From Candidatus Binatia bacterium (GTDB lineage Bacteria; Desulfobacterota; Binatia; UBA9968; JAJDTQ01): DNA of 64,000 nucleotides. Of this stretch, positions 41,654 to 64,000 are shown piece after piece (the stretch's first letter is position 1; each line of letters starts with the position of its first letter). The notes beneath the pieces were generated by a model. The model made no database searches. It was not told the origin of the DNA and worked only from the letters and a program-made list of their open reading frames with translations. The translations under genes were made by a program, and so were the position numbers. The stretch is from positions 1,573,602 through 1,637,601 of the forward strand of contig OY761465.1 in the NCBI GenBank assembly GCA_963664535.1, in the 5' to 3' direction.

Positions 41654-41684
41654 CCGCCAAACAGAAGCGTACCCCGCCCCACCT

Positions 41685-43982: not shown

Positions 43983-44030
43983 AAGAAGTATGGATCGTGA
44001 AGGAATGAGACCCGCGGAACGAGACCCGCA

Positions 44031-44079
44031 CCCGTCATTCCCGCCCTCCTCTCCGTCATTCCCGCGCAAGCGGGAATCC
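44031..44079. repeat. second copy (opposite orientation) of the GTCATTCCCGCGMAAGCGGGAATCC / CCCTCYCCCGTCATTC repeat family
   Basis: The sequence is CCCGTCATTCCCGCCCTCCTCTCCGTCATTCCCGCGCAAGCGGGAATCC. It is inverted relative to 41685-41766. Confidence 0.7.
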
Positions 44080-44127
44080 AGGAGGGGCGGGGAACGGGGG
44101 CCGTATCAACAAGAGGAGGATTCCATC

Positions 44128-46194: not shown

Positions 46195-46242
46195 CGCCCC
46201 GTACTCAAACCCGTTACCGTACGGAGCCGGGGGGTTGAGACT

Positions 46243-47313: not shown

Positions 47314-47347
47314 GGGGCTTCCTCCGAACTTCGCCCGGAATTCAATC

Positions 47348-49495: not shown

Positions 49496-50355
49496 GGCGT
49501 TATTGCCGGTAATCGACGGGAGCCTGAGAAGCTTCCTTGCTCCCTTTCCCTCCAGGAGAGGATCAGGTGAGGGCCGACAGCCTCCTCCGGACCTTCGATC
49601 TGGATGCCGAAGAACTCCAGCCCTCCATCGGCTTCAATCTCGACGGAATAGTCCCACCCGTGGACTTCAAACTCGAACAGCACGCCGCCCGCAAGAGTCG
49701 GAAAAACTGAAAGGGCTCCGGCCAGCGAGGGGCGTTGTCTGAGAAAAGTCTTTGCCATCTTGATGGCTTCATCGGATGGCGCAGAGCCTTCACCATCATG
49801 CCACCCGTCCTGCAGGTTTCCGAGATCGGTCAATCGTTCCATACAACGCATCAGCTGGTAAGTTTCCCGTACATGGGTGATGAGGGCTTTTCGACGGTAA
49901 CTGTCGAGAAAGACAACATTTCCGTCAGGATCACGCCGGTCTGGAAACTCGATCCTTTCCTGGTCGCGCAGACCGGCGCCAAATTTGTTAAGGGCACGGA
50001 TATGCTCAGAGGAGAGTGCTGGGAACCGGTCTTGGCCGGCGCCATCGATCAGGCCGACTAGATCCTTGAAGGACTGATCGACAATCTCTTCGATCTCGTC
50101 CGTGAAACCCGGCAATGTTGTATGCGCTTGTTCCAGGCTCCAATCGAGTTTTGGAACTGCACTCCCATCCTCGATCCCGACCAAGTCAAGTGAAATGCTT
50201 TTGTCGAACCCTTTGGGGAGGCGTTCACGGTCGGCATGCGACTGTCGCCAACGATCCTTGGCGTAGGCAACCAGCAAGTCGCGGAAAGCAGTCAGATCGG
50301 CTAGCACTGTCGTCGGCAGGCGCGGGCCTTCAAAGCGTGCCCCGACATAACGCAA
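49492..50355 (-). CDS. hypothetical protein (287 aa), lower-GC, translationally coupled to the molybdoenzyme
   Basis: The ATGA overlap with the downstream gene is at 49492-49495. There is no recognisable motif. GC is about 57% against a backbone of about 68%. Confidence 0.45.
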   Translation of the reverse strand: MRYVGARFEGPRLPTTVLADLTAFRDLLVAYAKDRWRQSHADRERLPKGFDKSISLDLVGIEDGSAVPKLDWSLEQAHTTLPGFTDEIEEIVDQSFKDLVGLIDGAGQDRFPALSSEHIRALNKFGAGLRDQERIEFPDRRDPDGNVVFLDSYRRKALITHVRETYQLMRCMERLTDLGNLQDGWHDGEGSAPSDEAIKMAKTFLRQRPSLAGALSVFPTLAGGVLFEFEVHGWDYSVEIEADGGLEFFGIQIEGPEEAVGPHLILSWREREQGSFSGSRRLPAITP

Positions 50356-50704
50356 CTCGAATATTTTCCGTCCAGTAGGCAGGTCGGTATCTCCAGACCG
50401 CGCAACTCAACTGTACCCTTAACCAGATACCACCGGACAAGCCGGACTTCAAAGTTCAGAGGCAGGCTTCCTATGTAAGGGAATGTGGTAAGGTGATCTG
50501 TAGGGTGGTTTCTCATGACAGAAATGGAGACGTGGATCCTTCATACACGCAAGTCGGCGTCTACCAAATGGCCCGAATTGCCGCCAAGGATAGCAAGTGA
50601 CCCACGAGGCTGCCGTATACGGCGACGGTTCAGTTTCGACCCTCGACGAGGCACTTGAGGCCCTCCAATCCCTCTCCTTGCCGGACGAAGACAAAGGGTA
50701 GTCC

Positions 50705-51676
50705 GTGGTCATAGACTTCCAGCACCACTACGTGCCCGAGGAACTGGCCCGAAAGAAGGGCCTCTACTCCGACAAGGTCGCCGTGGCCACAGAGGGCGGG
50801 GTGCCGCGGATGACCCTTCACGCCAAGCTCTACGACGCGGAGGCGCAGCTTCGGGACATGGACGAGGCCGGGGTGGACGTGTCGGTGGTGTCCTGCCATC
50901 TGGGGTGGGACGGGAGCCTGGAGGATTGCAGGGTCATCAATGACAGCTACGCGGGGCTGGAGCGGCGGTACGACGGACGGTTCGTCGGGCTGGCGCATGC
51001 GCCCGTCCTGGAAGGCGAAAAGGCGCTGGACGAGCTGGATCGGGCGATCCTGGAGCGCGGGCTCCACGGCGTGACCATCACTTCACAGGTGGGCGGCCTC
51101 TTTCTCGACGCGCCGGAGCTGGACCGGTTCTACGAACGGGTCGAGCGGCTTGGTGTTCCGATATTCGTGCACCCGGCGCTGGTGCCCAAGGGTTACGAAT
51201 CCATTCAGGGCTACGATCTGCCGCGCATCATCGGCAGGGAGATCGACCTGACCATCGCTACCATCCGGCTGATCGCCGGCGGGGTGTTGGACCGCCACCC
51301 GGAGATCGACTTCGTCATCGGGCACTTCGGCGGCGGCATCGCCGCGTTCAAGGACCGGCTGGTGGCCATGGCGCACCGGTTCGGCACCTTGAAACATTCG
51401 TTCGAAGAGTACTTCGATCGGCTCTATTTCGACCTCTCCGGCTTCGAGGGCGGGCTCACGGCCTTCGGTTGCGGCCTGCTGGGCATCCGGCCGGAACGGC
51501 TCGTGTTCGCCACGGACTATCCGCAGAACTTCACCGGCGTGAGCACGCAGGGCGGCAAGGGCAACCAGGCGATCCGTGAATATATCGAGGCGGTCAGGAA
51601 TCTGGAGCTTGAGGAGCAGGTCAAGGAGGACATCCTGGGGGGTACGGCCGCCCGGCTGCTGAAACTGGACGGTTGA
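50705..51676 (+). CDS. amidohydrolase-2 family protein (ACMSD-like decarboxylase/hydrolase TIM barrel)
   Basis: The motifs are MVIDFQHHYVPEE, GVPIFVHPA and FATDYP. It has a GTG start. Confidence 0.7.
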   Translation: MVIDFQHHYVPEELARKKGLYSDKVAVATEGGVPRMTLHAKLYDAEAQLRDMDEAGVDVSVVSCHLGWDGSLEDCRVINDSYAGLERRYDGRFVGLAHAPVLEGEKALDELDRAILERGLHGVTITSQVGGLFLDAPELDRFYERVERLGVPIFVHPALVPKGYESIQGYDLPRIIGREIDLTIATIRLIAGGVLDRHPEIDFVIGHFGGGIAAFKDRLVAMAHRFGTLKHSFEEYFDRLYFDLSGFEGGLTAFGCGLLGIRPERLVFATDYPQNFTGVSTQGGKGNQAIREYIEAVRNLELEEQVKEDILGGTAARLLKLDG

Positions 51677-51722
51677 AACCCCTGTCCGTCCAATCCCTGC
51701 CTGTCCAATGAACGGAGGTCCC

Positions 51723-52268
51723 ATGAAATACCTTGGACTCATTCTCCTGACTGTCTTGGTGGGCGCCCTGCTTGCCGGCCCGGGCGCGGCGGGCGAAACC
51801 GTGGAGGTCCTGCTGGTGGACCGCCTGGACGACCAGCGCGGCTTTTGCCTGGACATCCGCGGCTACAAGGAACGCGCCAGGGTCGACAGGGGCCTACAGG
51901 CACACAGTTGCTACAGCTATCAGGGGCAAGTCGGCGTCGACCAGGGATTCGACAGCGACGGCATCAAGGCGGGGCGCTTCCACATGCCCGGGTTCGACGT
52001 GTGCATGACCGCGGGCGGTGCCCACGCGGGCTCCGGGCTCGGGCTCGCGAAATGCGACGGCTCGCCGTCACAGGGGTTTTCCATGACGTCCGAGGGCGCG
52101 ATCGTTGCCAAGAGCGCGCCGAAGCTGTGCGTGACGGTGACGGGTGGCGAATCGAGGCAGGGAGGAGGCGGCCGGCCGCCGCATCTCATTCGGCGCCTGA
52201 CCCTGGAGCCTTGTGACGAGAAAACCGCCAAGTACCAGCGGTGGCGCGTCCGCACCAAAGCGGACTAG
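51723..52268 (+). CDS. secreted ricin-type beta-trefoil lectin domain protein
   Basis: There is a signal peptide. GFCLDI and QRWRV (QxW) repeats are present. A GGAGG RBS lies upstream. Confidence 0.6.
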   Translation: MKYLGLILLTVLVGALLAGPGAAGETVEVLLVDRLDDQRGFCLDIRGYKERARVDRGLQAHSCYSYQGQVGVDQGFDSDGIKAGRFHMPGFDVCMTAGGAHAGSGLGLAKCDGSPSQGFSMTSEGAIVAKSAPKLCVTVTGGESRQGGGGRPPHLIRRLTLEPCDEKTAKYQRWRVRTKAD

Positions 52269-52281
52269 CCGCACAACGACG

Positions 52282-52304
52282 AAGGGAGGTTTCAAACCCT
52301 CCCG
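52282..52304 (+). terminator. hairpin GGGAGGtttcaaaCCCTCCC after the lectin gene; its right arm begins the ~1.4 kb duplicated segment
   Basis: The stem is 6 bp. The second copy at 62292 lacks the left arm. Confidence 0.3.
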
Positions 52305-52532
52305 TCATTCAAGAGCAGCCATGCTCAGGCATACGCTTGTATCGCCAATAAACATGTGATTTAAGCAGGTTAAGATCGTTTGATACTGCCAAACCACGCC
52401 GTCTCCCACACTCCACTGCGCTCCGATTCCTTCTCTCGTGTTGATTGTGGGGTTGACTATTTCCTGGTCCACGCCTATCATACCCGTGTTTTCCGGTCTC
52501 CCAGCCGATACCCGAATTCGCGAGGTAACCCC

Positions 52533-53795
52533 ATGCAACACGCCGCAAAACTCGTCGCCAAAGTCAAGCTCATGCTGACCAAGAGAACGGTAGACGCTCT
52601 TGAGTCCGAAGACAAGCCCTGGATCGCCTGGGATGACAAGCTGACCGGATTCGGTGTGCGCGTCCACCCCTCCGGAGCCAAGTCCTTCGTCGTGAACTAC
52701 CGTGCCGGCAACGGCGGGCGCAAGGCGCCCAACAAGCGCGTGGTGGTGGGCCGTGTCGGGCGGGTTACCCCGGACCAGGCCAGGCGTCTGGCCCAGGAAC
52801 TCCTGGGGCGCGTGGCCGCGGGAAACGACCCCGCGGGGGAGCGCGCAGAGGCGCGTTCTGTGCCGACCCTGGGAGAGGCGTGCAAGGACTACATGGAGTC
52901 GGGCCATGGGCGCGCGGCCAGCACCGAGCGGGGCTATCGCCGGTATACGGCCTTGTATCTCGGCGACTGGCTGTCCCGCCCACTGGATGCCATCACCCGC
53001 CGGGAGGTGGAGAACCGGTTCAGGTTCCTTACCGAGCGCCACGGAGAGATGCCGGCCAACCAGTGCCTGTCGTTCCTTCGGTCGGTGTACCGCAGGCCCT
53101 GCGTGGACTACGAGGGTCTGCGCAATCCGGTGGAGCAGTGGCTTGCGGCCGGAGGGCGCTACCACCGGAAGACACGGCGGCGGATATCGTCTCCGGCCGA
53201 GGTGCTGCCGTGCTGGCGGAAGGGGCTGGAGGCGGAGGTGGGCAATGCGGTTCACCGGGACGTGGTTCTGTTTGGGCTCTACACGGGGATGCGGCTTGGA
53301 GAGGTCGTGCCGCTTCGGTGGGAGGATGTAGACCTGGATGCCGGGCTTTTCCGGGTGGAGGAGACCAAGACCGGGGCGCCGCTCGAGTTGCCGGTGACGC
53401 GGCAGCTTGGAGAGATACTGGCGCGGCGGCGGGCGGAGGGCCACACGGTTGGGGAGGAGCTTCGCGTGTGGGTGTTTCCGTCGCCGATGAGCGATTCCGG
53501 GCACGTGGAGGAACTCTACCGACACTACGGGGCCATCGGGCGAGCAGGCGGAGCGAAGTTCTGGTTTCACGCGTTGCGGAACTGCTTCATCACGGTGGCG
53601 GAGCGGGAGTTGATGCTGCCGCGGTCGTTGACGAAGCGTCTGGTGAACCATGCCCGGCCCGGTGACGTGACCGAGGGCTACGCCGCGGACTGGACGGTGG
53701 AGCAGTTGCGAGAGCCTGCGCAACGGGTCGCGAACCGCATCGATGAGTTGATGGCCCGACAGGTGCCGACCGTGCCTCACTCGCTTGGGAAGTGA
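52533..53795 (+). CDS. int: tyrosine-type site-specific integrase, P4-like with N-terminal DUF4102 arm-binding domain
   Basis: The DUF4102 region is DKLTGFGVRVHPSGAKSFVVNYR. The catalytic residues are present (R in GMRLGEV, HALRN, and Y in the GYAA tail). Confidence 0.85.
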   Translation: MQHAAKLVAKVKLMLTKRTVDALESEDKPWIAWDDKLTGFGVRVHPSGAKSFVVNYRAGNGGRKAPNKRVVVGRVGRVTPDQARRLAQELLGRVAAGNDPAGERAEARSVPTLGEACKDYMESGHGRAASTERGYRRYTALYLGDWLSRPLDAITRREVENRFRFLTERHGEMPANQCLSFLRSVYRRPCVDYEGLRNPVEQWLAAGGRYHRKTRRRISSPAEVLPCWRKGLEAEVGNAVHRDVVLFGLYTGMRLGEVVPLRWEDVDLDAGLFRVEETKTGAPLELPVTRQLGEILARRRAEGHTVGEELRVWVFPSPMSDSGHVEELYRHYGAIGRAGGAKFWFHALRNCFITVAERELMLPRSLTKRLVNHARPGDVTEGYAADWTVEQLREPAQRVANRIDELMARQVPTVPHSLGK

Positions 53796-54016
53796 CATGC
53801 GCGCGACGAGGCACATCCAACGGCTCCCGGAACAGCAGGTTGTGTCAAACAGGACCCTGGCGGCGTGATCCTTTACACCGGAATACACCTTACCTCCGCC
53901 GCCTCCCTGTCCCACAACCAGGACCACTTCATGATCCAACAAGAGTCTGGCGGCGGAAGGCGGTGGTTGCGCAGAGAGCCGTGGGTCAAGGGTGCGAATG
54001 GCGCCACCAGCATCGG

Positions 54017-54034
54017 GGATGCGTGGGGTGTGAG
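54017..54034. repeat. 18-nt direct repeat GGATGCGTGGGGTGTGAG (copy 1 of 2; second at 58304-58321), a candidate att core
   Basis: The match is exact over 18 nt and extends to a 28-nt near-match (GCATCsssGGATGCGTGGGGTGTGAG). It flanks the nuclease-like gene plus the two tandem integrases. Confidence 0.45.
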
Positions 54035-54259
54035 GAGAAAAGACTCCGCATGGAGTCAGATGGGCGATTGTGCCCTGCACACCGTCATTGGGTGGAACAG
54101 CCTGCGCCGCAAGAGTTTGGAGCCTTCGCGGCGATTGAGCGAGACGACCGGGCCGCAGTGTCCGAGCGAGTTCCGCATCGCCTTCCAGGCAACAGAGGTA
54201 ACAGACCGTACCGTACGGTGCAAGCACGAAGCGAGGCGTTTCACACACCGCGCACCGAA

Positions 54260-54480
54260 GGTTCGGTGTTACCGTCCGTCAACGGACGGGTTGCACTTGT
54301 TACCGCGAATCGTCAAGACGAGGTTCACATGTTACCGGAGACTTGAGTAGCGTGGTGAAGTGACCGGTGCACGAGGTCGTGCATGGTCCGGTGCACACGT
54401 TTGGAGTTACCGCGCATGAACCTGACGGTTAGGTTCTCGTTACCCGTCCTCACACTGCAAGCGGTCGTGCACTGCACGAT
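54260..54480. repeat. repeat- and palindrome-rich non-coding region (4x GTTACCG, palindromes CCGTCCGTcaaCGGACGG and CGTGCACTGCACG)
   Basis: GTTACCG occurs at 54268, 54298, 54332 and 54406. Several short perfect palindromes are present. There is no credible ORF across 53.8-54.66 kb. Confidence 0.45.
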
Positions 54481-54663
54481 GCAGACCGGCCTGCGGACAC
54501 CACTTGCATAAGCAACACCAGTTCTTCCCACGTCACTTGATGGCTTGATGGCGACTTACCCCTGATGTACCGACGTACCGCGGTGGAGGGATCGGCTTAG
54601 GCGGCGCTGGTGGCGCTTGCGGTGCCGGAGCGAGAAAAGTGGACCGCGACGGTCACGTTTTCG

Positions 54664-55536
54664 TTACTTCTCCGCACCGTGTACGCGGTCGTGGACGCCC
54701 GCTGCGAGAAGGTCTTCGATCACTTCTTTGAGTTCGACCACCGCAAGTGGACATTCTGGCCAATTGTGCTGCCAGCAGACGATCAAATCGCACTTCGCCG
54801 GGTCGTGTCCATGGTCCAAGAAGGTACGAGACATAAACTCAAACTCGATCCGCACACGCTGCCATCGGTCTTTCTTTCGATCGACGAGGCGCTTCGCCTC
54901 GCAGTCGGGGAAGGAGGCGTGTACAGCTTCGACGAGGAAGCCGAGTTCACGGCTGACCATGCCAAAGAGAAAGACGACTCCTAGCTCGTTGATCGGAGCG
55001 TGCCTCAGTCCGCGAAAGTCGATTGGGGCGCCGAACTGCGGTCCGCCACTGTTGCCCAGATGGACGTAAGGTTCCGGCGAGACAGTCTTGGTCTGTTTCA
55101 CTGGCGGTTGTCCTGATTCGTGCGATCCATCAAGTTGGCTCAACAGCGGAGACTGTGGCTCGTTTCGAACGAGCCATGCTCTGTACCTAGCCAGTAGACC
55201 ACTTCGGCCGCCGAAGCGGCGGCTAACGACTCCGTCTGAAATCAGACTGTGATGGTTGAACTGGTTCAACGTAGGGATCCGCCCAAGGCCCGATGCCACC
55301 GAATGGAACTCGCTCAGAAGTTCGTCATCCTCCAGGCGCTCGCGATGCCTGGGATGTTTCGGGATGCCAGCGCGCTCCTTGAGTTCCGACCACCCACCAT
55401 CAGGGAAGAGACGGTAGATTTGACGCTGGCTGATCCCGGAGATGCGCTCGAAGTCTGATCGCGACAGCGGTTGCCCTTGCTTCTCACTTGCGTGTTGGGC
55501 TTCCTGGATCAGATCGTTCTGTGTGAGCTGGCTCAT
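54664..55536 (-). CDS. hypothetical protein with an N-terminal HTH-like region and a C-terminal DUF559/Vsr-like (PD-(D/E)XK) endonuclease-like domain
   Basis: The C-terminus (FPDCEAKRL ... RVRIEFEF ... HGHD ... DLIVCWQHNW) parallels the DUF559 pattern (DFaClEAKL ... vEvDG.qH ... GwrVlRfwn). Confidence 0.45.
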   Translation of the reverse strand: MSQLTQNDLIQEAQHASEKQGQPLSRSDFERISGISQRQIYRLFPDGGWSELKERAGIPKHPRHRERLEDDELLSEFHSVASGLGRIPTLNQFNHHSLISDGVVSRRFGGRSGLLARYRAWLVRNEPQSPLLSQLDGSHESGQPPVKQTKTVSPEPYVHLGNSGGPQFGAPIDFRGLRHAPINELGVVFLFGMVSRELGFLVEAVHASFPDCEAKRLVDRKKDRWQRVRIEFEFMSRTFLDHGHDPAKCDLIVCWQHNWPECPLAVVELKEVIEDLLAAGVHDRVHGAEK

Positions 55537-55717
55537 GCTCCATGTCCCTCACGGCGGTCCTTGTCTAGCGCAGGCGTGTACATTCAGCGTGGCGCTTGTA
55601 CTCAGGCCACCGTCCAAGACTCGGCTGCGGGGCCTCAGAACCGCCCAAAAGGCGATCTTATTTTTTATCACACATTGTAGGGCCACGTACATTACCGATC
55701 CGTCCTCCTTCTGCGTC

Positions 55718-56977
55718 TTAATCGGATAGCTGGTGCGACGGATCGAGACCAGGAGGAACTGGTGGACCGGAGAGTCTGGCCTGTGGTTCAATCTGCGAGG
55801 GCGGCGTCTCGGCCCGAAAGCCCATGGCGCAGGCGATGACTGCAGCCGCCTGCTTGGCCGCACCCTGTAGCGCGATATCGTCGAGGTGGGCGTAGATGGC
55901 GGTTGTGGCGCGCTTGCGGTGTCCGAGCAGGCGGCCCACCGTGGTCAGCCCTACGCCGTTCATGACACCCTGGGAGGCGTAGGTGTGGCGGGTGTCGTGG
56001 ATTCGGACGCCTTGCAACCCGGCTTCCTGGCGAATCGCGCACCAGAAGCTGTAGAGCCTGCCTGGGGTGAGATCCTCGGGGAACACCCGCCCGTCGCCCT
56101 CCAGGCGGGGAAGGGCCGCGAGCACCTTTACCGCTTGCGGTCCGAGCCACAGGGTGCGCGGTCCGGTCTTGGAGTCCGGGAGGCGGACGCTTGCGCCGTC
56201 CCCGGACAGCTTCCCGATCTCGTCCCACCGGAGGTTCAACACCTCGGAGAGCCGCGCGCCGGTGAGGGTGAGGAGGTGGAGCGCAGCCACGGGCCAGGGA
56301 CGCTTCGCACGGCATGCATCAAGGACTGCGCCAAGGCGTTCCAGTTCTTCGCGGGTGAGATGGCGCGCGACCGGTCTTCTGGGGTTCATGACGATGTTGG
56401 CGCAGGGGTCGGGAGCGTCCTCGGACACCTCGCCCCACTGGCGCGCCGTGCGCAGCATGGCGCGGAGGATCTCGAAGGCGCGGTTGGCCGCGCCGGGCCG
56501 GTCGACGCTGGCGGAGTCGAACCACGCGGAGACCCGCGCATGGTCGATGCGATCGAGCCGCAGTCGGCCGAAGGCGGGCATGAGCCTCTGCCGCATGTAG
56601 CTGTCGTGGGCTTTGAGCGAGGACGGCTTGCAGCGGCTCCTGAGCCGCTCGCGGTAGCGGGCGGCGAAGTCGCCGAAGAGCGCCGGCCTGGGCCTGTGGC
56701 CGGGCACCGTGGCGTCGCCTGCCCAGATACGGGCGAGCACTTTGGCAGCCTCCCTTCGCGCATCGGCGAGGGGGGTCTCTGGGAAGCGCCCGAGGGTGAG
56801 CTTGCGCATCCGGCCCCGCACGCGGGTCTGGACGATGAAGGAGCGCACGCCCGAGGGCTGCACCCTGACTCCGAAGTGAGCGAGCGCGCCGTCCCAGAGC
56901 GTGTACTCGGTCCGCCTCGGCTTGGCGGCTGCAATGGCGCTAACGGTCAACGGCTTCTTGCCCTGCCTACGATCCAT
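55718..56977 (-). CDS. tyrosine-type integrase, P4-like (DUF4102 N-domain), downstream member of a tandem pair
   Basis: The DUF4102 region is WDGALAHFGVRVQPSGVRSFIVQ. The catalytic residues are present (R in GARLSEV, HDTRHT, and Y in AIYAHL). A GGAGG RBS lies upstream. Confidence 0.85.
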   Translation of the reverse strand: MDRRQGKKPLTVSAIAAAKPRRTEYTLWDGALAHFGVRVQPSGVRSFIVQTRVRGRMRKLTLGRFPETPLADARREAAKVLARIWAGDATVPGHRPRPALFGDFAARYRERLRSRCKPSSLKAHDSYMRQRLMPAFGRLRLDRIDHARVSAWFDSASVDRPGAANRAFEILRAMLRTARQWGEVSEDAPDPCANIVMNPRRPVARHLTREELERLGAVLDACRAKRPWPVAALHLLTLTGARLSEVLNLRWDEIGKLSGDGASVRLPDSKTGPRTLWLGPQAVKVLAALPRLEGDGRVFPEDLTPGRLYSFWCAIRQEAGLQGVRIHDTRHTYASQGVMNGVGLTTVGRLLGHRKRATTAIYAHLDDIALQGAAKQAAAVIACAMGFRAETPPSQIEPQARLSGPPVPPGLDPSHQLSD

Positions 56978-58115
56978 GACGCCCCTCCTTCCTGCTTCCG
57001 GTCATCGCCGCCTCAACGATGCCGCCGATGCGGCCCGCAGCCTCCCGGACGTGGTCGTCGGCAAGGTGAGCATAGCGGTCGGTGGAGGCGATGTCCGCAT
57101 GGCCGAGCAAGCGGCCCACCGTATAGAGGTCGATGCGGCTCATGACCGCGTGGGAGGCCAGAGTATGACGGAAGTCGTGTATGCGCACGTCCTCCAGACC
57201 CGCCAGCCTTCGCAGCTTCTGCCAGCGAAGCCCGAGATCGTTCATCGGCCCGGAGCCCGTTGTGTTGGGAAAGACGTAGCGTGAGACACGCGGCACTCCG
57301 GAGAGCACCGCTCGGGCGGGTGGCGGAAGCTGGATGGTCTTCGGGCCGGTCTTCGAATCCGGCAACAGCGCCCGGGCGCCGCGTATCCAGTCCCACCGAA
57401 GGCCGGTGATCTCGGACGACCGCGCGCCGGTGAACAGCAGGAGACGGATCACGGCGACGGCCTGACTGTCCTCGGCATGGTCGAGCACGAAGCCGAGGCG
57501 TTTCAACTCCTCCACGGAGAGGAACCGCTCCCTGGCCCCAGTCCTGTAGCGGCGCATGTTACGGCAGGGGTTGGAGCCCTGGGGGCGAATGTCCCACAGT
57601 TCGGCCTGGGCGAGCATGACGGAGAGCACGGGCAGCGCTCGGTTGGCGGTGGCGGGAGAGCTGCTCAGGGAATCGAACCAGCGCTGCACGTCGGCGCGGG
57701 AGATTTCGGGGACGCGCATGAAGCCGAAGAAGGGCAGGAGTTGGTTCTTGAGCACGGAGCTGTTGCTCTGGCGGGTGGAGGGCTTCCAGCGCCTGGACTG
57801 GCGGCGCATGAATTCGTCCGCGAAGTCCTGGAACAGGGGTCCGGCCTTGTGCTCGGCCGTGGCGGCGTCGATAGCGGCGACGGCTCGATCACGCGCCTGG
57901 GCGGCGGTCAGTTCAGCGGTCGTGCCGAGGGTGAGATTGACCGCGCTCGGGGCTCGCTTCACGCGGACGAAGAAGGTCCTCGAATCGTCGGCTGCGATCT
58001 TGAGGCCGAAGGCGGGCAGGGTGTGATCGAGGACGATGAGCGGGCGCTTCCGGTGCCTGGGCTCGGCGAACTTTCGGTTGATGGTTCTTTCATTGAGATT
58101 TGCGAAGATGCGCAT
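56967..58115 (-). CDS. tyrosine-type integrase, P4-like (DUF4102 N-domain), upstream member of the tandem pair; overlaps the next gene by 11 nt
   Basis: The DUF4102 region is LPAFGLKIAADDSRTFFVRV. The catalytic residues are present (R in GARSSEI, HDFRHT, and Y in DRYAHL). The start is MRIFANL at 58115, with a GGGAGG RBS. The track ORF extends to 58160. Confidence 0.8.
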   Translation of the reverse strand: MRIFANLNERTINRKFAEPRHRKRPLIVLDHTLPAFGLKIAADDSRTFFVRVKRAPSAVNLTLGTTAELTAAQARDRAVAAIDAATAEHKAGPLFQDFADEFMRRQSRRWKPSTRQSNSSVLKNQLLPFFGFMRVPEISRADVQRWFDSLSSSPATANRALPVLSVMLAQAELWDIRPQGSNPCRNMRRYRTGARERFLSVEELKRLGFVLDHAEDSQAVAVIRLLLFTGARSSEITGLRWDWIRGARALLPDSKTGPKTIQLPPPARAVLSGVPRVSRYVFPNTTGSGPMNDLGLRWQKLRRLAGLEDVRIHDFRHTLASHAVMSRIDLYTVGRLLGHADIASTDRYAHLADDHVREAAGRIGGIVEAAMTGSRKEGRHGS

Positions 58116-58303
58116 GTGGCTGCCTCCCATAGTTGTTCCCTCGAATGCCACCGGTTCCAAGGAAACAACGGCGGCGGTTCACGGAAGGAGATGCAGCCCG
58201 TGCAGGGACAGGGGGGTGAGTGGCCGTGACGCCCTAACGCAGCGTTAAAGCGGAAGAAATCGTCCGTATGGCTGGTCGGGAAAGTCTCGCTCAAGGCATC
58301 CCG

Positions 58304-58321
58304 GATGCGTGGGGTGTGAGA
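58304..58321. repeat. 18-nt direct repeat GGATGCGTGGGGTGTGAG (copy 2 of 2)
   Basis: It is identical to 54017-54034. It lies ~190 nt upstream of the tandem-integrase start. Confidence 0.45.
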
Positions 58322-58808
58322 ACCCTTAACGGGCGCCAGCCCGTCCAAGAAGGGGGATTGGCCGCTGGGCTACGATGTCGGGGAGGAGTGCATGGACGGT
58401 CAGCAAGGCAAAGCCGCCGTGGCGATTGAACGGTGCCGGTGTCGCGTTGCACGGGACATTGCGATTGGGCGCTGCACCGCCACGGGTACAGAGTCGGACA
58501 CGCTGCCGGGGGCGTGCCGGAGCAATTATGTCCGACGACGGGAACGACGCTCACCCGTGTCGGCATCACCGCGGACGGCGTGATGGTGGAAGATGACGAC
58601 TCGGCATCTCGCGGTTGAGATCGGCACGAGCACAGGGACGCCTGCTCATGCTTGTAGTTGTCGTCCCTGTGCTGTCCCGGCAGCGTGACAACCACGGACA
58701 CCGGCGACACGCGGGCATCCCATCCACAGGTGATTGACGCCATTGACACGCCGTGCCTGGTCGCTGTACAAATCTGGATGAATGGCAACACTCAACGGAG
58801 GCTCGGCG

Positions 58809-59210
58809 ATGAGGACGTTTCTTGTAGTACTGATTGCAGCGCTACTCATGGTTGGCGGCACGACCGTTGCTCATGCAGGGGACTGCAGTGGGATGTCTGT
58901 CGAGAAGGCCCGCAATATCCTCCTTGAAGAGAGCCCCACTCGCACAGAGTACCCCTGTGCGGCGAAGCGGGTAAAACAGGATATCAAGGCATGCCTGGAG
59001 TTTTTTAAGCAGGACGAATGTACGGGCCCAGCTAAAGTTTGGTTGAATGCATGGGACAAGTTAAAACCGCAACCCTCCGAGGAGTCAAGTTCCGTCAAGT
59101 CCTTGGCGTTGTCGACGCCGTCAATCCTGAAACCGCGTGCTCCCTTTGCGAAATCTATCACGGACTATTTGCGTGAGACGCCCTATCCGTACGGCCGTGC
59201 GCCCCGATGA
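58809..59210 (+). CDS. small secreted hypothetical protein (signal peptide, Cys-containing)
   Basis: The signal peptide is MRTFLVVLIAALLMVGGTTVAHAG. A GGAGG RBS lies upstream. GC is lower than the backbone. Confidence 0.45.
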   Translation: MRTFLVVLIAALLMVGGTTVAHAGDCSGMSVEKARNILLEESPTRTEYPCAAKRVKQDIKACLEFFKQDECTGPAKVWLNAWDKLKPQPSEESSSVKSLALSTPSILKPRAPFAKSITDYLRETPYPYGRAPR

Positions 59211-59767
59211 GCATGCCGGAACCGGCCACAAACGCATCAAACGGTTCACCATCGGGCACGGGCAACGGTACCGAGGGAGGGCGGTTCGGCCGGTTGAGCA
59301 GGGATCCAGGTGCCGTCACCCCTGGCTTGGCCGCAGCGGTCCTCGGTTTTACTGTTGGCGCGCTGACTGGCGTCTCCGGTCCTGACGCTGTAGTGCTGGC
59401 TGCGGTTCTGCCCGCAGTCCTGTCGGCTGCCGGTCCCACCGCTGTCTTTCTCGTAAGCAGAGGAGATGGTGGCACACGCCGCATGCGTGCCGTCAGTGGC
59501 CTGATCGTCCTGTTTTCCGTTGGTATCCTCGTCGGCGCCCCTTTCGGATCTTGGTACAAGGACTACAGTGAGAGAAGCGCGTTCAATGACGCGCTGAAGA
59601 AAGCGGAGGTCGCCCGGCAGGCTATCAGAGTCCGTCATTTCGAGGATCTGAGGGACTGCACAATCTTAGAACACCAAGTGAGTACTCAGCGTGATCGCCT
59701 TGATCTGCCGCCGGTCACAATCTCACAGGTTTGCCCGTTCCTCGACGATCCGAATTCCGGCAGATGA
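59207..59767 (+). CDS. hypothetical membrane protein (3-4 TM, Gly/Ala-rich)
   Basis: It is coupled to the upstream gene by an ATGA overlap. Hydrophobic helices are present (AAVLGFTVGALTGV, VVLAAVLPAVLSAAG, LIVLFSVGILVGAPFG). Confidence 0.45.
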   Translation: MSMPEPATNASNGSPSGTGNGTEGGRFGRLSRDPGAVTPGLAAAVLGFTVGALTGVSGPDAVVLAAVLPAVLSAAGPTAVFLVSRGDGGTRRMRAVSGLIVLFSVGILVGAPFGSWYKDYSERSAFNDALKKAEVARQAIRVRHFEDLRDCTILEHQVSTQRDRLDLPPVTISQVCPFLDDPNSGR

Positions 59768-59970
59768 CGAACATCTGGCCGACCTCAACCACTGCTGAGA
59801 GCTTTCCCCCAACCACAGACACGGCCTGTGACGGTCCCATGACGGTACATCAGGCCCTGACCGTGCGCTGGACCATCTCCCGGAAGCGGTGCTTTCCCCA
59901 GCGCTGGCGGATACAGGTCAGGCTCGAATGGTGGGGGCAGGCGCTCGTGCAACCCGTAATCGATGAACTA

Positions 59971-61124
59971 GTGTCCTGTCCGATTAATTAGTTGAAGAAC
60001 AATGGAGTGTGTCGTACCATGGGAAGAAAGGACAGGAGGGCACCATGGCACGACCCCCAGCGGCGATCGTTTTGAGCGAGGAGGAGAAGGCGGAGCTAGA
60101 AAGATGGAGTCGGCGGCGCAATACGCGAGCGGGTCTTCATCTACGAGCGGGCGTGGTTTTGGATTGCGCGCGAGGTTACACCGGGGAGGAGGTGGCGAAG
60201 CGACACCACACGAGCCAGCAGACGGTGTCGAAGTGGCGGGGGCGGTTCGCCCGAGAGCGACTGGCGGGACTGTCCGATGCGGTGCGAAGCGGCCAGCCGC
60301 GCAAGCACAACGACGTACGGGTGCAGGAAGTGTTGGACGCGACACTGAATCGACGGCCGAAGCATGCCACGCACTGGAGCGTTCGGAGTTTATCCGAGGA
60401 CCTGGATGTGCCACGGGATTTCGTTCATCGTGTATGGCGGGCATTCGGGCTCAAACCTCACTTGTCTCGGAACTTCAAGCTATCCACCGATCCGCACTTC
60501 ATCGACAAGGTGCGGGACGTGGTGGGTCTTTATCTGAATCCGCCGGACAACGCGCTGGTGTTGTGCGTGGATGAGAAAAGCCAGATTCAGGCATTGGACC
60601 GTACCCAACCCGGTTTACCGCTGAACTACGGCACACCCGAGACCCGGACCCATGACTATCGGCGCTATGGCACCACCACGCTGTTCGCCGCACTGGAGGT
60701 GGCTACGGGTCGAGTGGTGGGCAAGCTGCACCGCCGGCACAGAAGCCAAGAGTTCACCGCTTTCTTGCGCCACATCGACTCGCAGGTCCCGGCCGCCTTG
60801 GAAGTCCACCTCATTCTCGACAACTACGGCACCCACAAGACCACCCAAGTCAAGAACTGGCTGTTGCGACACCCCCGATTCCACTGTCATTTCATCCCCA
60901 CCTACAGTTCCTGGATGAACTTGGTGGAGCGCTTCTTCGCAACCTTGACCGAACACCAGTTACGCCGCGGCACCTACCGCTCCGTGGTCGCTCTGGAGAA
61001 AGCCATACGAAATTACCTCGACCTGCACAATCAACATCCCAAGCCGTTTCGTTGGACCAAGTCCGCTGACGCCATCATTGACTCTGTCACCAGTGTTATT
61101 AAACGAATTAACCAGACACCACAC
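59971..61124 (+). mobile_element. IS630-family insertion sequence (1154 bp) with imperfect ~21-bp TIRs and a TA target-site duplication
   Basis: The left end is GTGTCCTGTCCGATTAATTAG. The reverse complement of the right end is GTGTGGTGTCTGGTTAATTCG (16/21 match). TA flanks both ends at 59969-70 and 61125-26. It contains a single DDE transposase gene. Confidence 0.7.
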
Positions 61125-61127
61125 TAG
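60045..61127 (+). CDS. IS630-family transposase (HTH + DDE)
   Basis: The N-terminal HTH is [21 protein letters not shown]. The DDE region spans [14 protein letters not shown] ... [10 protein letters not shown] ... [19 protein letters not shown] precedes the ATG at 60045. The stop lies within the right TIR. Confidence 0.85.
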
Positions 61128-61199
61128 CATGGCCGTGGGCGCTAGGAAAAACGCCGCTTCGGTGTCTGACGGCCGTTTGCCTCTGCCGTCTCAATAGTG

Positions 61200-61660
61200 C
61201 TAGGCGGAAGGGAATCGGCTGAGAATGCGCCTTTGTTTATTGAAGCATTCGACGATGCCAGCGAGGAACTGGAGCGACGCCATTCCGAATTGGAAATGCC
61301 CGGAGTCGGACGAATCAGCCGTATCTTGACGGATGCTGGCTCGGGTTTCCAGATAGACCCGCCGAAGCTTGTCGCCGCCCGGCGGGTGGCCACAGTCCAT
61401 GACCGCTACCAGGTACAGGAAGCCAGGCCGGACGGGGATATGGGTGGTGTACGCGGTCCAGATCTGATTGGGCCGGTCGATGGCGAGGCCATGGAGAAGG
61501 ACGGGGTGGGGTTTGGTGGTCCGCGATGCCTGGTAGATGGCCTGTAGTCTCATCAACCGCAGAATTGATCGCACCCAACGGGCCAGTGTGTCGCGTCTCC
61601 GTTTCGACGCGGGAGAAACCGTGACCGATGCTGCCGCGCGTGCTATATTCCATCGGTTCC
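61200..61660 (-). pseudogene. IS3-family transposase (OrfB integrase-core) remnant
   Basis: IDRPNQIWTAYTTHIPVRPGFLYLVAVMD matches the IS3 rve core, and the C-terminal GIVECFNKQRR matches the IS3 tail. It is truncated and degraded, with no intact catalytic region. Confidence 0.55.
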
Positions 61661-61678
61661 GCTTGAGGGGAAAGAGAG

Positions 61679-61951
61679 TTGAAGAAGTCCGATGTCGTGT
61701 CCCACGTGACGAGCAGCGCCTCCCTGTCGAAGGCCGAGTCGGTCGCCGCAGTCGACGCGGTGTTCGACGCCATCTAGGACTGTCTGGCGAAAGGAGAACC
61801 GGTCGTCATCACGGGGTTCGGGACCTTCTCGACGACGAGCCGACCGGCCCGCCGGGGGCGGAACCCGAGGACGGGTGAGCGCATCGACATCGCCGCCTCG
61901 ACAGCGCCCTCGTTCAAGGCCGGCAAGGCCCTTTGCGATGCGGTGCGCTAG
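61679..61951 (+). pseudogene. HU/IHF-family DNA-binding protein gene with an in-frame amber codon at codon 33
   Basis: The 90-codon frame reads [89 protein letters not shown]. The TAG lies at 61775-61777. It has a TTG start with a GGGGAAAGAGAG RBS. Confidence 0.55.
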
Positions 61952-62291
61952 AGTTCCGCCGGGTAGAGCAGGCGGGCGGCGCCATCAGGCGGCAGGAATG
62001 CTGGGTTTACAGAAGCCACCAAGCCACCGTAAGTGTTCGGTGACGGGGTGATTGCGAAGCAAGGAAACACCGAGCATAGATAGCGCGTCGTCGTGCAGAA
62101 CCGGAATCACCGCTGTCTCGGCGCTGGCATCACCCTTTGACCGAACGAAGACAAGCCACCCGAAGCGCCGTGTTGACCATGTGTTGATTGTTCCGGCGCG
62201 AATCATCCGGTCTTTCAAGAGGAGAGTTTTACTTATTTGTTTTCAGCTAGTTACGGGCGGCGAGCGGTAGGACAAACCCCTACACGGCCAA

Positions 62292-63672
62292 GTTTCAAAC
62301 CCTCCCGTCATTCAAGAGCAGCCATGCTCAGGCATACGCGAGTCCGAAGACAAGCCTTGGATCGCCTGGGATGACAAGCTGACCGGATTCGGTGTGCGCG
62401 TCCACCCCTCCGGAGCCAAGTCCTTCGTCGTGAACTACCGTGCCGGCAACGGCGGGCGCAAGGCGCCCAACAAGCGCGTGGTGGTGGGCCGTGTCGGGCG
62501 GGTTACCCCGGACCAGGCCAGGCGTCTGGCCCAGGAACTCCTGGGGCGCGTGGCCGCGGGAGACGACCCCGCGGGGGAGCGCGCAGAGGCGCGTTTTGTG
62601 CCGACCCTGGGAGAGGCGTGCAAGGACTACATGGAGTCGGGCCATGGGCGCGCGGCCAGCACCGAACGGGGCTATCGCCGGTATACGGCCTTGTATCTCG
62701 GCGACTGGCTGTCCCGCCCACTGGATGCCATCACCCGCCGGGAGGTGGAGAACCGGTTCAGGTTCCTTACCGAGCGCCACGGAGAGATGCCGGCCAACCA
62801 GTGCCTGTCGTTCCTTCGGTCGGTGTACCGCAGGCCCTGCGTGGACTACGAGGGTCTGCGCAATCCGGTGGAGCAGTGGCTTGCGGCCGGAGGGCGCTAC
62901 CACCGGAAGACACGGCGGCGGATATCGTCTCCGGCCGAGGTGCTGCCGTGCTGGCGGAAGGGGCTGGAGGCGGAGGTGGGCAATGCGGTTCACCGGGACG
63001 TGGTTCTGTTCGGGCTCTACACGGGGATGCGGCTTGGAGAGGTCGTGCCGCTTCGGTGGGAGGATGTAGACCTGGATGCCGGGCTTTTCCGGGTGGAGGA
63101 GACCAAGACCGGGGTGCCGCTCGAGTTGCCGGTGACGCGGCAGCTTGGAGAGATACTGGCGCGGCGGCGGGCGGAGGGCCACACGGTTGGGGAGGAGCTT
63201 CGCGTGTGGGTGTTTCCGTCGCCGATGAGCGATTCCGGGCACGTGGAGGAACTCTACCGACACTACGGGGCCATCGGGCGAGCAGGCGGAGCGAAGTTCT
63301 GGTTTCACGCGTTGCGGAACTGCTTCATCACCGTGGCGGAGCGGGAGTTGATGCTGCCGCGGTCGTTGACGAAGCGTCTGGTGAACCATGCCCGGCCCGG
63401 TGACGTGACCGAGGGCTACGCCGCGGACTGGACGGTGGAGCAGTTGCGGGAGCCTGCGCAACGGGTCGCAACCCGCATCGATGAGTTGATGGCCTGACAG
63501 GTGCCCACCGTACCTCACTCGCCGGGGAAGTGACATGCGCGCGACGAGGCACATCCAACGGCTCCCGGAACAGCAGGTTGTGTCAAACAGGACCCTGGCG
63601 GCGTGATCCTTTACACCGGAATACACCTTAACTCCGCCGCCTCCCTGTCCTACAAACCAGGACCACCTCACG
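62292..63672 (+). repeat. segmental direct repeat of 52290-53930 (integrase region), ~98% identical, with a ~263-nt internal deletion
   Basis: The block 62292-62339 equals 52290-52337. From 62340 onward the sequence matches 52603 onward with scattered mismatches. Similarity ends near 63672/53930. Confidence 0.8.
62340..63497 (+). pseudogene. 5'-truncated, nonsense-mutated duplicate of the P4-like integrase gene
   Basis: It lacks the start codon and the first ~23 codons of the 52533 gene. It has a premature TGA (CGA->TGA) at 63495-63497 that removes the last 11 codons. Confidence 0.7.
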
Positions 63673-64000
63673 TAAAACTCCCCCAAATCCAGCCCGTCCA
63701 CCAGGTCGCTTACGTGGTGCGCCAAATGCCCCGCAGGTACCCACTCCGCCAAATCCGGCGGCATCAACAGCTTCTGCCCAGGTTCATACCCTCGATAGCT
63801 CGTTGGCACTCCCCTCTCCTTCCGCTCCTTGTCTCCTCCCGCTCCTCTTTATACTTTCTCCCTTGCCCGCTTTTCTACGGCGCAGACTCCTAGTTCCGGT
63901 ATGGTTATTATAAATGCAGTAGTTCGCGATTATTGCGAAAATCCGTCGGTTCATCAACTATCGACTTCTGTTGCTGTGATTGTCCCAATTCGCGTTTTCT

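Follow-up and report, generated by a model that had tools for sequence, protein, structure and literature searches.

Tandem accretion of integrative elements at one site, with decay into cis-mobilizable elements, is known from systems of the ICESt1/CIME type (reviewed in PMC5704250). The locus described here lies in a window of 64,000 nucleotides (the whole stretch of DNA that was analyzed) and resembles these arrays in that two related elements in direct orientation share att sites at one target, that one member has an intact predicted integrase while the other is decayed, and that the internal att site would have been formed by an incoming element integrating into the att site of the resident. 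It differs from them in the target, which is the loop of an intergenic palindrome and not a tRNA or protein gene at its 3′ end, and in that transfer genes are absent from the elements of the window; a TrwC relaxase is found in one relative (L101). The integrase itself is of the P4-like or "DUF4102" type, with an Arm-DNA-bind_3 and a Phage_integrase domain and the residues R-K-H-R-H-Y. As in P4-like islands and in attP sites of the lambda type, the integrase gene adjoins attL, the promoter lies in the P′ arm, repeated motifs are present in both arms, and the crossover falls most likely in a 7-nt loop between inverted arms, comparable to the anticodon or T loops of tRNAs into which relatives insert (L034, L044, L051). 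Unlike the P4-like islands, the subfamily in the window uses a REP-like hairpin instead of a tRNA gene, and no excisionase gene was identified.

Several insertion sequences, among them IS1397, ISKpn1, ISPpu9/ISPpu10 and IS621, target REP or BIME sequences. The use of these palindromes as targets by insertion sequences has been described (PMC1525189). The present elements share with them the insertion into repeated extragenic GC-rich palindromes and the site-specific occurrence in multiple copies at multiple loci. Those insertion sequences, however, have DDE or DEDD transposases, whereas here we find a tyrosine integrase, an arm-type attP and the possibility of many kilobases of cargo. The last comparison concerns solitary ends of IS3-family elements, as they arise in one-ended IS911 events: here too the flanking DNA changes at a terminal repeat whose last letters are CA, but in our case only 97 nt of the insertion sequence are left and are fused to the 3′ UTR of the integrase gene.

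The host genes left of the insertion end with one for a ricin-B-lectin (51708..52268, plus strand; Pfam Ricin_B_lectin, E 1.3e-10). In a comparison with relatives for the empty site and the att core we found a locus, L104, which is syntenic with the window over 45124-52269 (86-90%); synteny stops at 52269. At the orthologous position, 16 nt past the stop codon of the lectin gene, L104 carries the empty palindrome (10563-10589) GCGGGCGGG TTTGAAA CCCGCCCCTAC, and the host genes downstream of this palindrome are absent from the window. The target is a palindromic, REP-like hairpin rich in GC, about 15 nt 3′ of the ricin-lectin gene; its left arm and its loop are joined, in the window, to the integrase-proximal arm of the element. 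The attL core (52284..52303, plus strand) consists of the host left arm GGGAGG (52284-52289), the 7-nt loop or overlap TTTCAAA (52290-52296) and the element arm CCCTCCC (52297-52303). The same type of junction is present in L001-L005, L007-L010, L012, L017, L023, L024 and L101-L103; the left junction, host arm / TTTSAAA / CCC[G/T]CC[C/T]GTC..., is shared by more than 15 relatives, in which the loci are unrelated. Recombination took place inside the identity segment GTTTSAAACCC[G/T]CC, and the 7-nt loop is most likely the exact point.

From the left flanks of attL, the right flanks of attR and the free sites the consensus of the palindrome can be rebuilt as GTAGGGGCGGG TTTSAAA CCCGCCCCTAC, the window's own left hairpin arm being the variant GAAGGGAGG. 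The palindrome is extragenic and GC-rich and has the GTAG...CTAC signature of REP sequences. Free palindromes were found at L002:5788, L002:9001, L005:6151, L017:661, L104:10572 and in the window itself (33247), and the density of the full palindrome, sampled in loci of about 20 kb, is roughly one per 20-60 kb. The 3′ part of a tRNA or tmRNA gene, the usual though not the obligatory integration target of such integrases, is ruled out here: attB is an intergenic palindrome, and neither a tRNA nor a tmRNA gene is present anywhere in the window. Rfam families above threshold were likewise absent from the window.

The first-pass annotation had described two copies of a segment, about 98% identical, as the borders of a mobile-element hotspot. 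Both copies are real. Positions 52289-52336 are identical to 62292-62339 (48/48), and 52602-53931 align with 62340-63670 at 98.57% identity (18 mismatches, one one-base gap, E = 0); between these two blocks copy 2 lacks 265 nt, the counterpart of 52337-52601. The period between the copies is 10,003 bp, both have unique flanks, and the window holds no other repeats of similar size. In the coding part 14 codons differ, eight of them synonymously and six non-synonymously, which argues that both copies were functional genes for most of their divergence. They do more than border a hotspot, however: a complete 10-kb element has copy 1 as its left end, and the element that follows it has copy 2.

This complete element, element 1, extends from 52290 to 62299. 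Its integrase-proximal arm (P′; 52297..52532, plus strand), assigned from the position of the motif in relatives and from a promoter scan, contains the tandem motif GTGTTGATTGTGGGGTTGAC at 52438-52457 and a sigma-70-like promoter, TTGACT-17-TATCAT, at 52453-52481. In most of 80 related loci the tandem motif is found about 55-100 nt 5′ of the integrase start codon; since it overlaps the -35 box, it could be part of the promoter or an operator rather than an arm site. The gene int1 (52533..53795, plus strand) encodes the 420-aa tyrosine integrase, which is intact as annotated and has full-length relatives at 64-98% identity. It matches Arm-DNA-bind_3 (PF13356, 60.2 bits, E 2e-16, profile positions 1-82) and Phage_integrase (PF00589, 46.7 bits against a cut-off of 27.1, E 4e-12). 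By inspection of motifs, not by structural alignment, the candidate catalytic residues are R254, K279, H346, R349, H373 and Y383, in the contexts GMR254LGE, ETK279TG, FH346ALR349, NH373A and EGY383. No solved structure was matched by sequence to this integrase.

The distal arm (P; 62160..62292, plus strand) carries the tandem motif GTGTTGACCATGTGTTGATTG at 62170-62190 and ends with CGGCCAAG. It is 84-91% identical to the arms at nine independent sponge-metagenome junctions, where the match spans about 137-170 nt and always ends ...CGGCCAAG|TTTSAAA|, followed by unrelated host DNA that mostly starts with CCCGCCCC(C)TAC and often with CCCGCCCCTAC, the other half of the palindrome. Four more junctions match only the last 25-57 nt of the arm. 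We conclude that 52290-62299 is one complete element because 62160-62292 is this conserved distal arm, which elsewhere abuts varied host DNA. The motif GTGTTGAY-N-GKGTTGA is common to both arms (62170 and 52438). The core arm on the P side (GGCCAAG) does not repeat the P′ core arm in inverted orientation, which, like the lack of an identified excisionase gene and the overlap of the P′ motif with the -35 box, counts against the tandem reading. With an intact integrase gene, a promoter and both arms, element 1 is probably still able to excise, as judged from its sequence.

The interior of element 1 is mostly secondary mobile DNA, and the integrases, the nuclease-like gene, the IS630 element, the IS3 remnant and the HU pseudogene reported between the two copies could each be located. 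At the right edge of copy 1 there is an IS3-family right-end fragment (53835..53931, plus strand), recognized by alignment with full IS3 elements in L006, L049, L046 and L084. It comprises the 3′ end of orfB and the terminal repeat, and ends ...GGACCACTTCA; a comparison with L001 puts its fusion with the 3′ UTR of the integrase gene close to the microhomology CCGGA. Of the complete elements, those in L006 (4384-5713) and L049 (1958-3294) encode rve and HTH_21 domains (Pfam) and end ...CCACCTCA, which assigns them to the IS3 family; in the window only the 97-nt end, present twice, and an orfB remnant are retained. Further to the right two 25-nt direct repeats (54010..54034 and 58296..58320, plus strand; 23/25 identical) enclose a nested 4.3-kb integrative element (54035..58295, minus strand; Pfam, BLASTP), 75% identical at the nucleotide level to L021 4574-7090. 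Its target is uninterrupted in L039 and L002 and occupied in L021 and the window. The nested element encodes, all on the minus strand, an HNH_repeat protein (54664-55536; Pfam), integrase B (55718-56977) and integrase A (56967-58160; both Pfam, BLASTP); the two integrase genes overlap by 11 nt and their proteins are 39% identical. A classification as Recombinase-in-trio (RIT) was rejected, there being two adjacent integrase genes between the 25-nt repeats and not three.

Two small open reading frames read from the sequence (58782..59767, plus strand), presumably cargo of element 1, gave no Pfam match and have no relatives among the related loci compared; the first (58782-59210) has a signal-peptide-like N-terminus and the second (59207-59767) is hydrophobic. 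They are followed by an IS630-family insertion sequence (59968..61127, plus strand; Pfam DDE_3 and HTH), assigned to this family by its transposase gene (60009-61127; DDE_3 = PF13358, E 1.4e-20) and its terminal inverted repeats CTAGTGTSSTGTCYGRTTAATT of about 22 nt at 59968 and 61127, each adjoining TA. The IS3-family orfB remnant (61395..61544, minus strand) covers residues 93-148 of about 307 (tblastn 62-70% identity, E 1e-17 to 1e-18), with DNA matches to L006, L049, L046 and L084. Finally there is a pseudogene of an HU-type DNA-binding protein (61679..61942, plus strand; tblastn to the HU gene of L034, E 2e-14) with an in-frame TAG at 61775-61777.

Immediately after the P arm follows the internal overlap TTTCAAA (62293..62299, plus strand), where element 1 passes into element 2 as P-O-P′; this type of junction is also present in L096/L099, where it is followed by a P′ arm without an integrase homologue. 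Of the P′ arm of element 2 only 40 nt remain (62300..62339, plus strand) before the deletion of 265 nt, which removed the arm motif, the promoter and codons 1-23. The pseudogene int2 (62340..63497, plus strand) accordingly begins at codon 24, as the annotation had it, and comparison with int1 gives codons 24-408 followed by TGA, the annotated CGA to TGA change, which falls at codon 409 (R409*; 53757 / 63495). It keeps both domains (Phage_integrase 47.3 bits; Arm-DNA-bind_3 from profile position 26). With these losses one member of the tandem is without integration functions. The second IS3 right-end fragment (63573..63670, plus strand; ending ...GGACCACCTCA) forms the right edge of copy 2, and there element 2 is broken by an IS fragment, the first 46 codons of a DUF772-type (IS5/IS1182-like) transposase gene (63671..63809, minus strand; tblastn to the L006 DUF772 transposase, E 2e-4; 80% nucleotide identity to L018/L019), which is cut exactly at the IS3 end.

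From left to right the array comprises the host left arm, the loop, the P′ arm and int1, and then, past the interior of element 1, the P arm, a second loop, the P′ remnant and the int2 pseudogene. Both attL (52284-52303) and the internal junction (62285-62306) are present and have 48 nt in common; an attR of the array does not occur within the window. Very probably two sibling integrative elements of one family sit in tandem in a single attachment site. Tandem acquisition of related islands at one site followed by decay of one of them, as proposed in the first-pass annotation, is supported by the empty site in L104 and by the conserved P arm left of copy 2, which ends at the same 7-nt loop with which both copies start. 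The underlying reaction would be site-specific recombination of the lambda/P4 type. Int1 would recombine attP with the GGGAGGTTTCAAACCCTCCC hairpin, its core domain acting on the hairpin arms and its N-terminal arm-binding domain on the GTGTTGAY tandem motifs of both arms, and the second element, on arrival, would have used the attL or attR of the resident first one. Past position 64000 the array is expected to close with P arm - loop - CCCTCCC - host.

Element 2 could also have been a minimal element with little more than the integrase gene (P′ - int - short spacer - P), which entered attR of element 1 and was then truncated. In some genomes copies indeed share only about 1.6-1.7 kb (L061/L078/L079 95-96%, L011/L041 99.75%), and in L048 a P-arm-type motif lies about 220 nt past the integrase stop codon; however, within the window nothing P-arm-like is found right of copy 2, and the closest relatives with the integrase-IS3 fusion carry long cargo (the relaxase of L101, methylase/Z1 genes in L105). 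We consider such a minimal element unlikely, and it would be a variant of the tandem arrangement rather than a competitor.

The fused IS3 end, absent from the earlier reading, calls for separate consideration. Both copies of the repeat stop on the right precisely at the IS3 terminus ...CCACYTCA. A unit of 1.64 kb (loop - P′ - int - IS3 end) with both edges the same occurs also in L101 and L102, the IS3-end edge occurs in L105, and beyond the terminus no two of the five contexts (both window copies, L101, L102 and L105) have the same DNA. The tandem arrangement leaves this repeat edge and the differing flanks unaccounted for. Copy 2 might stem from a process anchored at the IS3 end, in which the unit was duplicated or relocated, either through the action in trans of an IS3 transposase on the solitary end or because IS3 copies recombined homologously with one another; this IS3 is common in the related genomes and sits inside a P arm in L084. 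We give this origin a slim chance, as the left edge is the integrase crossover loop to the base, nothing resembling an IS3 left end is present there, and a complete conserved P arm lies directly before copy 2, as expected from an integrase reaction but not from an IS3 event. What happened on the right side of the two copies is more plausibly due to IS3-related events than is the duplication. Any activity of the solitary IS3 end is conjectural.

At similarly low probability, the 1.64-kb unit could be a mobile chimera served by two enzymes, a different one at each end: its left end would be put into the loops of REP-like hairpins by the tyrosine integrase, and its right end would be the substrate of an IS3 transposase supplied in trans or of recombination with the many copies of IS3. 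If so, the adjoining cargo would be continually swapped or deleted, which would explain five contexts with shared fusion edges but unrelated right flanks. That the real chromosome has only one integrase copy, the assembly having produced an artefact or a strain chimera, is very unlikely, even though a metagenome-assembled genome is the probable source of the window and multi-copy families such as that of the integrase classically lead to misjoins: between the copies there are 18 substitutions with an excess of synonymous changes, an indel and the 265-nt deletion, their flanks are unique, a normal attR and the observed junction share only about 15 nt, and the exact P-O-P′ junction recurs in an independent, unrelated assembly (L096/L099).

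The integrase belongs to a multi-copy family which occurs in several phyla and inserts into the loops of REP-like palindromes. Relatives L034, L044, L051 and L057 use tRNA-Met as target; L034 can serve as the model element, being 8.2 kb long, bounded by 62-bp direct repeats and having an HU gene near its distal end, with the crossover in the 7-nt anticodon loop. With a REP-like hairpin as target many sites per genome are available. The tandem event itself is ordinary; less ordinary are the hairpin target and the spread of the integrase across many sponge-associated bacteria.

Comparison of the window with itself revealed a single large direct repeat, with copy 1 at 52289-53931 and copy 2 at 62292-63670. 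The first 48 nt are identical (52289-52336 versus 62292-62339; 48/48), the counterpart of 52337-52601 is missing from copy 2 (a deletion of 265 nt), and the remainder (52602-53931 versus 62340-63670) shows 98.57% identity with 18 mismatches and one 1-nt gap. The integrase gene of copy 1, int1 (52533-53795), codes for 420 aa with an Arm-DNA-bind_3 and a Phage_integrase domain and has the catalytic motifs R254, K279, H346, R349, H373 and Y383; no relatives were found in the PDB by sequence search. In copy 2 the reading frame of int2 begins at the equivalent of int1 codon 24 and is closed prematurely at codon 409 by a change from CGA to TGA (R409*). The single 265-nt deletion has cost the second element its arm motif, its promoter and codons 1-23, and inspection of the sequences gave no convincing microhomology at this deletion. 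The first-pass annotation had described the repeat accurately, with positions correct to 1-2 bases: two ~98%-identical copies, the second deleted at the 5' end, an intact 420-aa integrase in copy 1, and in copy 2 the loss of the promoter and the first ~23 codons together with a nonsense change near the 3' end.

The copies differ in 14 codons, and since 8 of these changes are synonymous, most of the 1.4% divergence accumulated with both genes under selection. Two sibling elements account for this pattern better than does either an artefact or a recent duplication.

Both copies begin at GTTTCAAACCCTCCCGTC. Upstream of copy 1 lie host genes for a molybdopterin oxidoreductase, an amidohydrolase and a ricin-B lectin (51708-52268), and, together with the host sequence GGGAGG directly before it, the copy forms a complete hairpin GGGAGG-TTTCAAA-CCCTCCC 15 nt beyond the stop codon of the lectin gene. 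Copy 2 is preceded by ...CACGGCCAAG. Relatives of int1 were collected in a protein-guided scan with one genome per species, from which more than 439 were returned and 80 loci kept (related loci from other genomes and metagenome contigs carry L-numbers). The integrase module starts at the same point in L001-L005, L007-L010, L012, L017, L023 and L024, where TTT[C/G]AAA and then CCCGCC[T/C]GTC... come after a left flank that varies but is usually GTAGGGGCGGG. Complete free palindromes (GTAGGGGCGGG TTTCAAA CCCGCCC...) occur near the integrases of L002, L005 and L017, and a free variant with the right arm CACGCCC in L004.

Relatives of the lectin protein are 87% identical, and one of them is encoded on a 2.0-Mb contig (L104) which is syntenic with 45124-52269 of the window at 86-90% nucleotide identity. 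The synteny ends at 52269. At 10563-10589 of L104, 16 nt past the lectin stop codon, the sequence GCGGGCGGG TTTGAAA CCCGCCCCTAC is uninterrupted and folds into a hairpin of -11.7 kcal/mol, and the host genes directly after it are present nowhere in the window. The empty hairpin and the end of synteny therefore mark the DNA from 52290 to beyond 64000 as an insertion relative to L104, the right junction of which is outside the window. L104 provides the empty site that the first-pass annotation had proposed to seek in related genomes, and the lectin-adjacent hairpin is the attachment site of the element. An exact 37-nt pattern for the host junction had no match in metagenome contigs. A tRNA or tmRNA near the two copies, considered in the same annotation, was ruled out as attachment site, since ARAGORN found neither in the whole window and Rfam gave nothing at gathering thresholds.

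The candidate hairpin targets for Int1, written out, are GGGAGGTTTCAAACCCTCCC and GGGCGGGTTTSAAACCCGCCC. The 9-mer GTAGGGG[CA]G showed no enrichment over chance in the fetched DNA, and only full palindromes are informative. The form of the target palindrome and the handful of free copies suggest that it is REP-like. About 35 nt after the empty hairpin, L104 has a different GC-rich palindrome also ending in CCCCTAC (10626-10650; GGGGGCGACCGGCCGGTCGCCCCTAC), and the two together resemble a REP doublet. A vacant palindrome with one mismatch, GGGGCGGG CTTGAAA CCCGCCCCTAC, lies within the window itself at 33247-33272. It forms the right edge of a low-GC block (28000-33000; 54-59% versus about 67%) which encodes an 898-aa PHP/AAA_21 protein (28549-31245) and a Schlafen AlbA_2 plus HATPase_c_4 protein (31255-32631) and looks like a small defence-type island.

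In L010 a TTTGAAA-CCCGCCCCTAC junction likewise follows the 8 nt that stand directly before copy 2 (CGGCCAAG). This prompted a scan of metagenome contigs for CGGCCAAGTTTSAAACCCKCC, which gave 20 matching contigs from 13 independent loci, several of them from the Aplysina aerophoba sponge metagenome MKWU01. At 9 independent loci the left 125-140 nt are homologous to 62160-62292 of the window (84-91%, E 1e-36 to 1e-57), the homology stopping at about that distance from the loop. The right flank differs at every locus and mostly begins with CCCGCCCC(C)TAC, which is the palindrome's right half. No integrase homologue was found to the left of these junctions in the up to 5 kb available per contig, so that we regard the sequence as a conserved distal arm (P arm) adjoining variable cargo. 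A free-standing miniature element of 135 nt was rejected, as the up to 5 kb examined in the metagenome contigs contained no left-type junction. Viral contigs gave no match to the junction pattern. The P arm contains a tandem motif, GTGTTGACCATGTGTTGATTG, at 62170-62190, and the integrase-proximal arm (P' arm) a similar one, GTGTTGATTGTGGGGTTGAC, at 52438-52457. In most of the 80 relatives, and across phyla, the latter precedes the start of the integrase by ~55-100 nt; in the window it overlaps the promoter TTGACT-17-TATCAT. From this anatomy and by reference to lambda-type recombination both motifs are putative arm-type binding sites for the N-terminal domain.

Four junction types can be distinguished around the loop: the empty site attB of L104 (...GCGGGCGGG, TTTGAAA, CCCGCCCCTAC), the left element-host junction attL of the window (...GAAGGGAGG, TTTCAAA, CCCTCCCGTCATTC), the internal junction of the window (...CACGGCCAAG, TTTCAAA, CCCTCCCGTCATTC) and attR, for example in L083 (...CACGGCCAAG, TTTGAAA, CCCGCCCCTACGG). 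One recombination scheme accommodates all four. The element's own site, attP, and attB share GTTTSAAACCC[G/T]CC (S being C or G), whose symmetric centre is the 7-nt loop (O), the probable overlap region by analogy with lambda integration. From the scheme follows the order attL, element 1 (52290-62299, period 10,003 bp), a P-O-P' junction and the remnant of element 2. An independent assembly (L096/L099) also has a P-O-P' junction followed by a P' arm, there with no integrase homologue. The normal behaviour of the family is shown by a clean relative, L034, in which a 62-bp direct repeat bounds an 8.2-kb element that has its integrase at one end and an HU gene close to the opposite end; this repeat is the 3' half of tRNA-Met, with the crossover in the 7-nt anticodon loop.

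The tandem acquisition at one attachment site and subsequent decay proposed in the first-pass annotation are thus supported by the empty site of L104, the P arm before copy 2 and the P-O-P' junction. Either order of arrival yields the identical array, and the two orders are therefore indistinguishable (cf. PMC5704250). Element 1 retains an intact integrase, its promoter and both arms and, on lambda-type logic, could plausibly still be excised if attL recombines with the internal junction. The alternative of two insertions of a self-contained, integrase-only transposon corresponding to the 1.6-kb repeat was rejected for the window, because neither right flank has the other half of the hairpin and a full P arm precedes copy 2; minimal integrase-only forms may exist elsewhere (L048, L011/L041, L061/78/79). 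A candidate minimal element of 1.5 kb between 10-nt repeats in L050 was not significant, and L021 and L039 were wrongly considered as additional tandem arrays, their integrases sitting at the 5' end of an ssb gene.

Between the copies we located each of the features listed in the first-pass annotation: a nuclease-like gene for an HNH_repeat protein (54664-55536, minus strand), two overlapping integrase genes (55718-56977 and 56967-58160, both minus strand), two small ORFs with no family matches as presumed cargo, an IS630-family element (59968-61127) with ~22-nt terminal inverted repeats, a short remnant of an IS3-family orfB (61395-61544, minus strand) and an HU gene with an in-frame TAG (61679-61942). 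The products of the overlapping genes are 39% identical to each other and 27% to Int1. A 25-nt direct repeat, GCATC[GG/CC]GGATGCGTGGGGTGTGAG, at 54010-54034 and 58296-58320 flanks the HNH_repeat gene and the integrase pair. Its conserved sequence is uninterrupted in L039 and L002 and is occupied in L021 by an integrase pair 75% identical to that of the window. This makes the 4.3-kb block an integrative element in its own right, nested in element 1. Its target is a conserved non-coding sequence (...TCCAACAAG...GCATCNGGGATGCGTGGGGTGTGAG...) with no match to an Rfam family, occupied in the window (53932-54034 and 58296-58400) and in L021 (about 7000-7090), empty in L002 (20522-20640) and L039 (about 6950-7060), and also found in L037 near 21185. 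Elsewhere the window contains inverted repeats at 18678-18948 and 42068-42338 (272 nt, 77% identity) and at 41668-41740 and 44025-44096 (73 nt, 86% identity), the latter pair also matching short sequences adjoining an IS630-type gene in L104 (8185-8292).

The main point which the tandem model leaves unexplained is the right boundary of the repeat. Each copy ends in roughly 97-120 nt (53835-53931; 63573-63670) that form the right terminus of an IS3-family element of roughly 1.33 kb, of which complete copies with rve and HTH_21 domains and the end ...GGGACCACCTCA were mapped in L006 (4384-5713), L049 and L046. From comparison with L001, which has no IS3 piece, the integrase 3' UTR appears to be fused to the IS3 end at a CCGGA microhomology. 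Close relatives with this fusion, located through the protein database, lie at unrelated hairpin sites: L101 (9756-11406, 93% to the window unit) and L102 (1704-3350, 96%) share both edges; in L105 (9915-11223, 90%) the match begins inside the integrase gene and the P' core is degenerate, with the same IS3-end edge; and in L103 (4290-5569, 96.5%) the integrase is interrupted at window-equivalent 53569. The fusion of the 3' UTR with the 97-nt IS3 right end is conserved across up to about 10% divergence. The DNA directly after ...CCACCTCA is unrelated in five out of five contexts (both window copies, L101, L102 and L105). Copy 1 is followed by conserved backbone sequence which in L002 lies 9.3 kb from the integrase, copy 2 by codon 46 of a DUF772-type transposase gene read backwards, and the unit of L101 by cargo including a TrwC relaxase.

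Our best guess is that the fusion arose once, through a deletion inside an element, and that copy 1 may retain the ancestral arrangement. The right side would later have been remodelled at the solitary IS3 end, perhaps through recombination with other IS3 copies or through a transposase supplied in trans. The same IS3 is inserted inside the P arm of L084 (around 2936, 36 nt from the core), is represented by a solitary left end in L005 (11295-11354, 136 nt after another integrase) and in L006 (4384) lies within the 5' end of a DUF772 transposase gene; these placements hint at a preference for the elements or their hairpins.

The relatives of int1 with 64-98% protein identity come from genomes labelled Binatia, Thermodesulfobacteriota, 'Deltaproteobacteria', Alpha- and Gammaproteobacteria, Acidobacteriota (Vicinamibacteria), Gemmatimonadota and Poriferihabitaceae. 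For the Aplysina aerophoba assemblies MKWU01 and MPMX01 a sponge origin is documented; the names of several other records imply one, and for the remaining bins it is suggested by the bin names; the RHO and IRC bins are consistent with the sponge species sequenced in PMC8163846, from which we infer a sponge origin there too. Six copies occur in Binatia CBDBFB01 and four each in OZ243926 and OY282363. The length shared between copies is only about 1.6-1.7 kb in some genomes and at least 6 kb in the Binatia genome, and element size ranges from near integrase-only units to relaxase-carrying islands of more than 10 kb. The closest full-genome relative, L101, encodes a 986-aa TrwC-type relaxase/helicase (14491-17451), and at least some family members look mobilizable by conjugation. 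As in copy 2, 5'-truncated or interrupted integrases are frequent among the relatives, for example in L006 (from residue 37), L067 (from 59), L068 (from 32) and L103 (cut); in L068 a second occurrence of the upstream 400 nt lies 11 kb downstream.

Targets differ by subfamily and comprise the TTTSAAA palindrome, tRNA-Met (L034, L044, L051, L057) and the 5' end of ssb (L021, L039). At this third target type distant integrase relatives lie at or just inside the ssb 5' end (MSFGLNRAQVIGRLGADV...; L021 about 9800, L039 about 9750), and the ssb gene is uninterrupted in L037 (about 18300, reverse strand).

By its mechanism the element belongs to the lambda/P4-type integrative elements, and the local structure is a standard case of tandem accretion in which one partner has decayed (PMC5704250), an event of textbook island biology. 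DDE and DEDD insertion sequences are well known to insert into REP-type palindromes (PMC1525189), whereas the present family has an arm-binding tyrosine integrase. The full-text literature searched, of partial coverage and leaving novelty unproven, contained no description of tyrosine-integrase elements targeting REP-like palindromes or of this sponge-associated integrase family. What goes beyond the ordinary is that such an integrase has its attB in the loop of a palindromic hairpin that is itself repeated, so that many sites per genome can be occupied, with up to six copies in one Binatia genome. While the mechanism is ordinary, the choice of target, the copy number and the range of hosts are of moderate interest. 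If confirmed, the family would be a recurrent source of contig breaks and misjoins in sponge-microbiome assemblies and a concrete vehicle of cross-phylum gene flow in sponge microbiomes.
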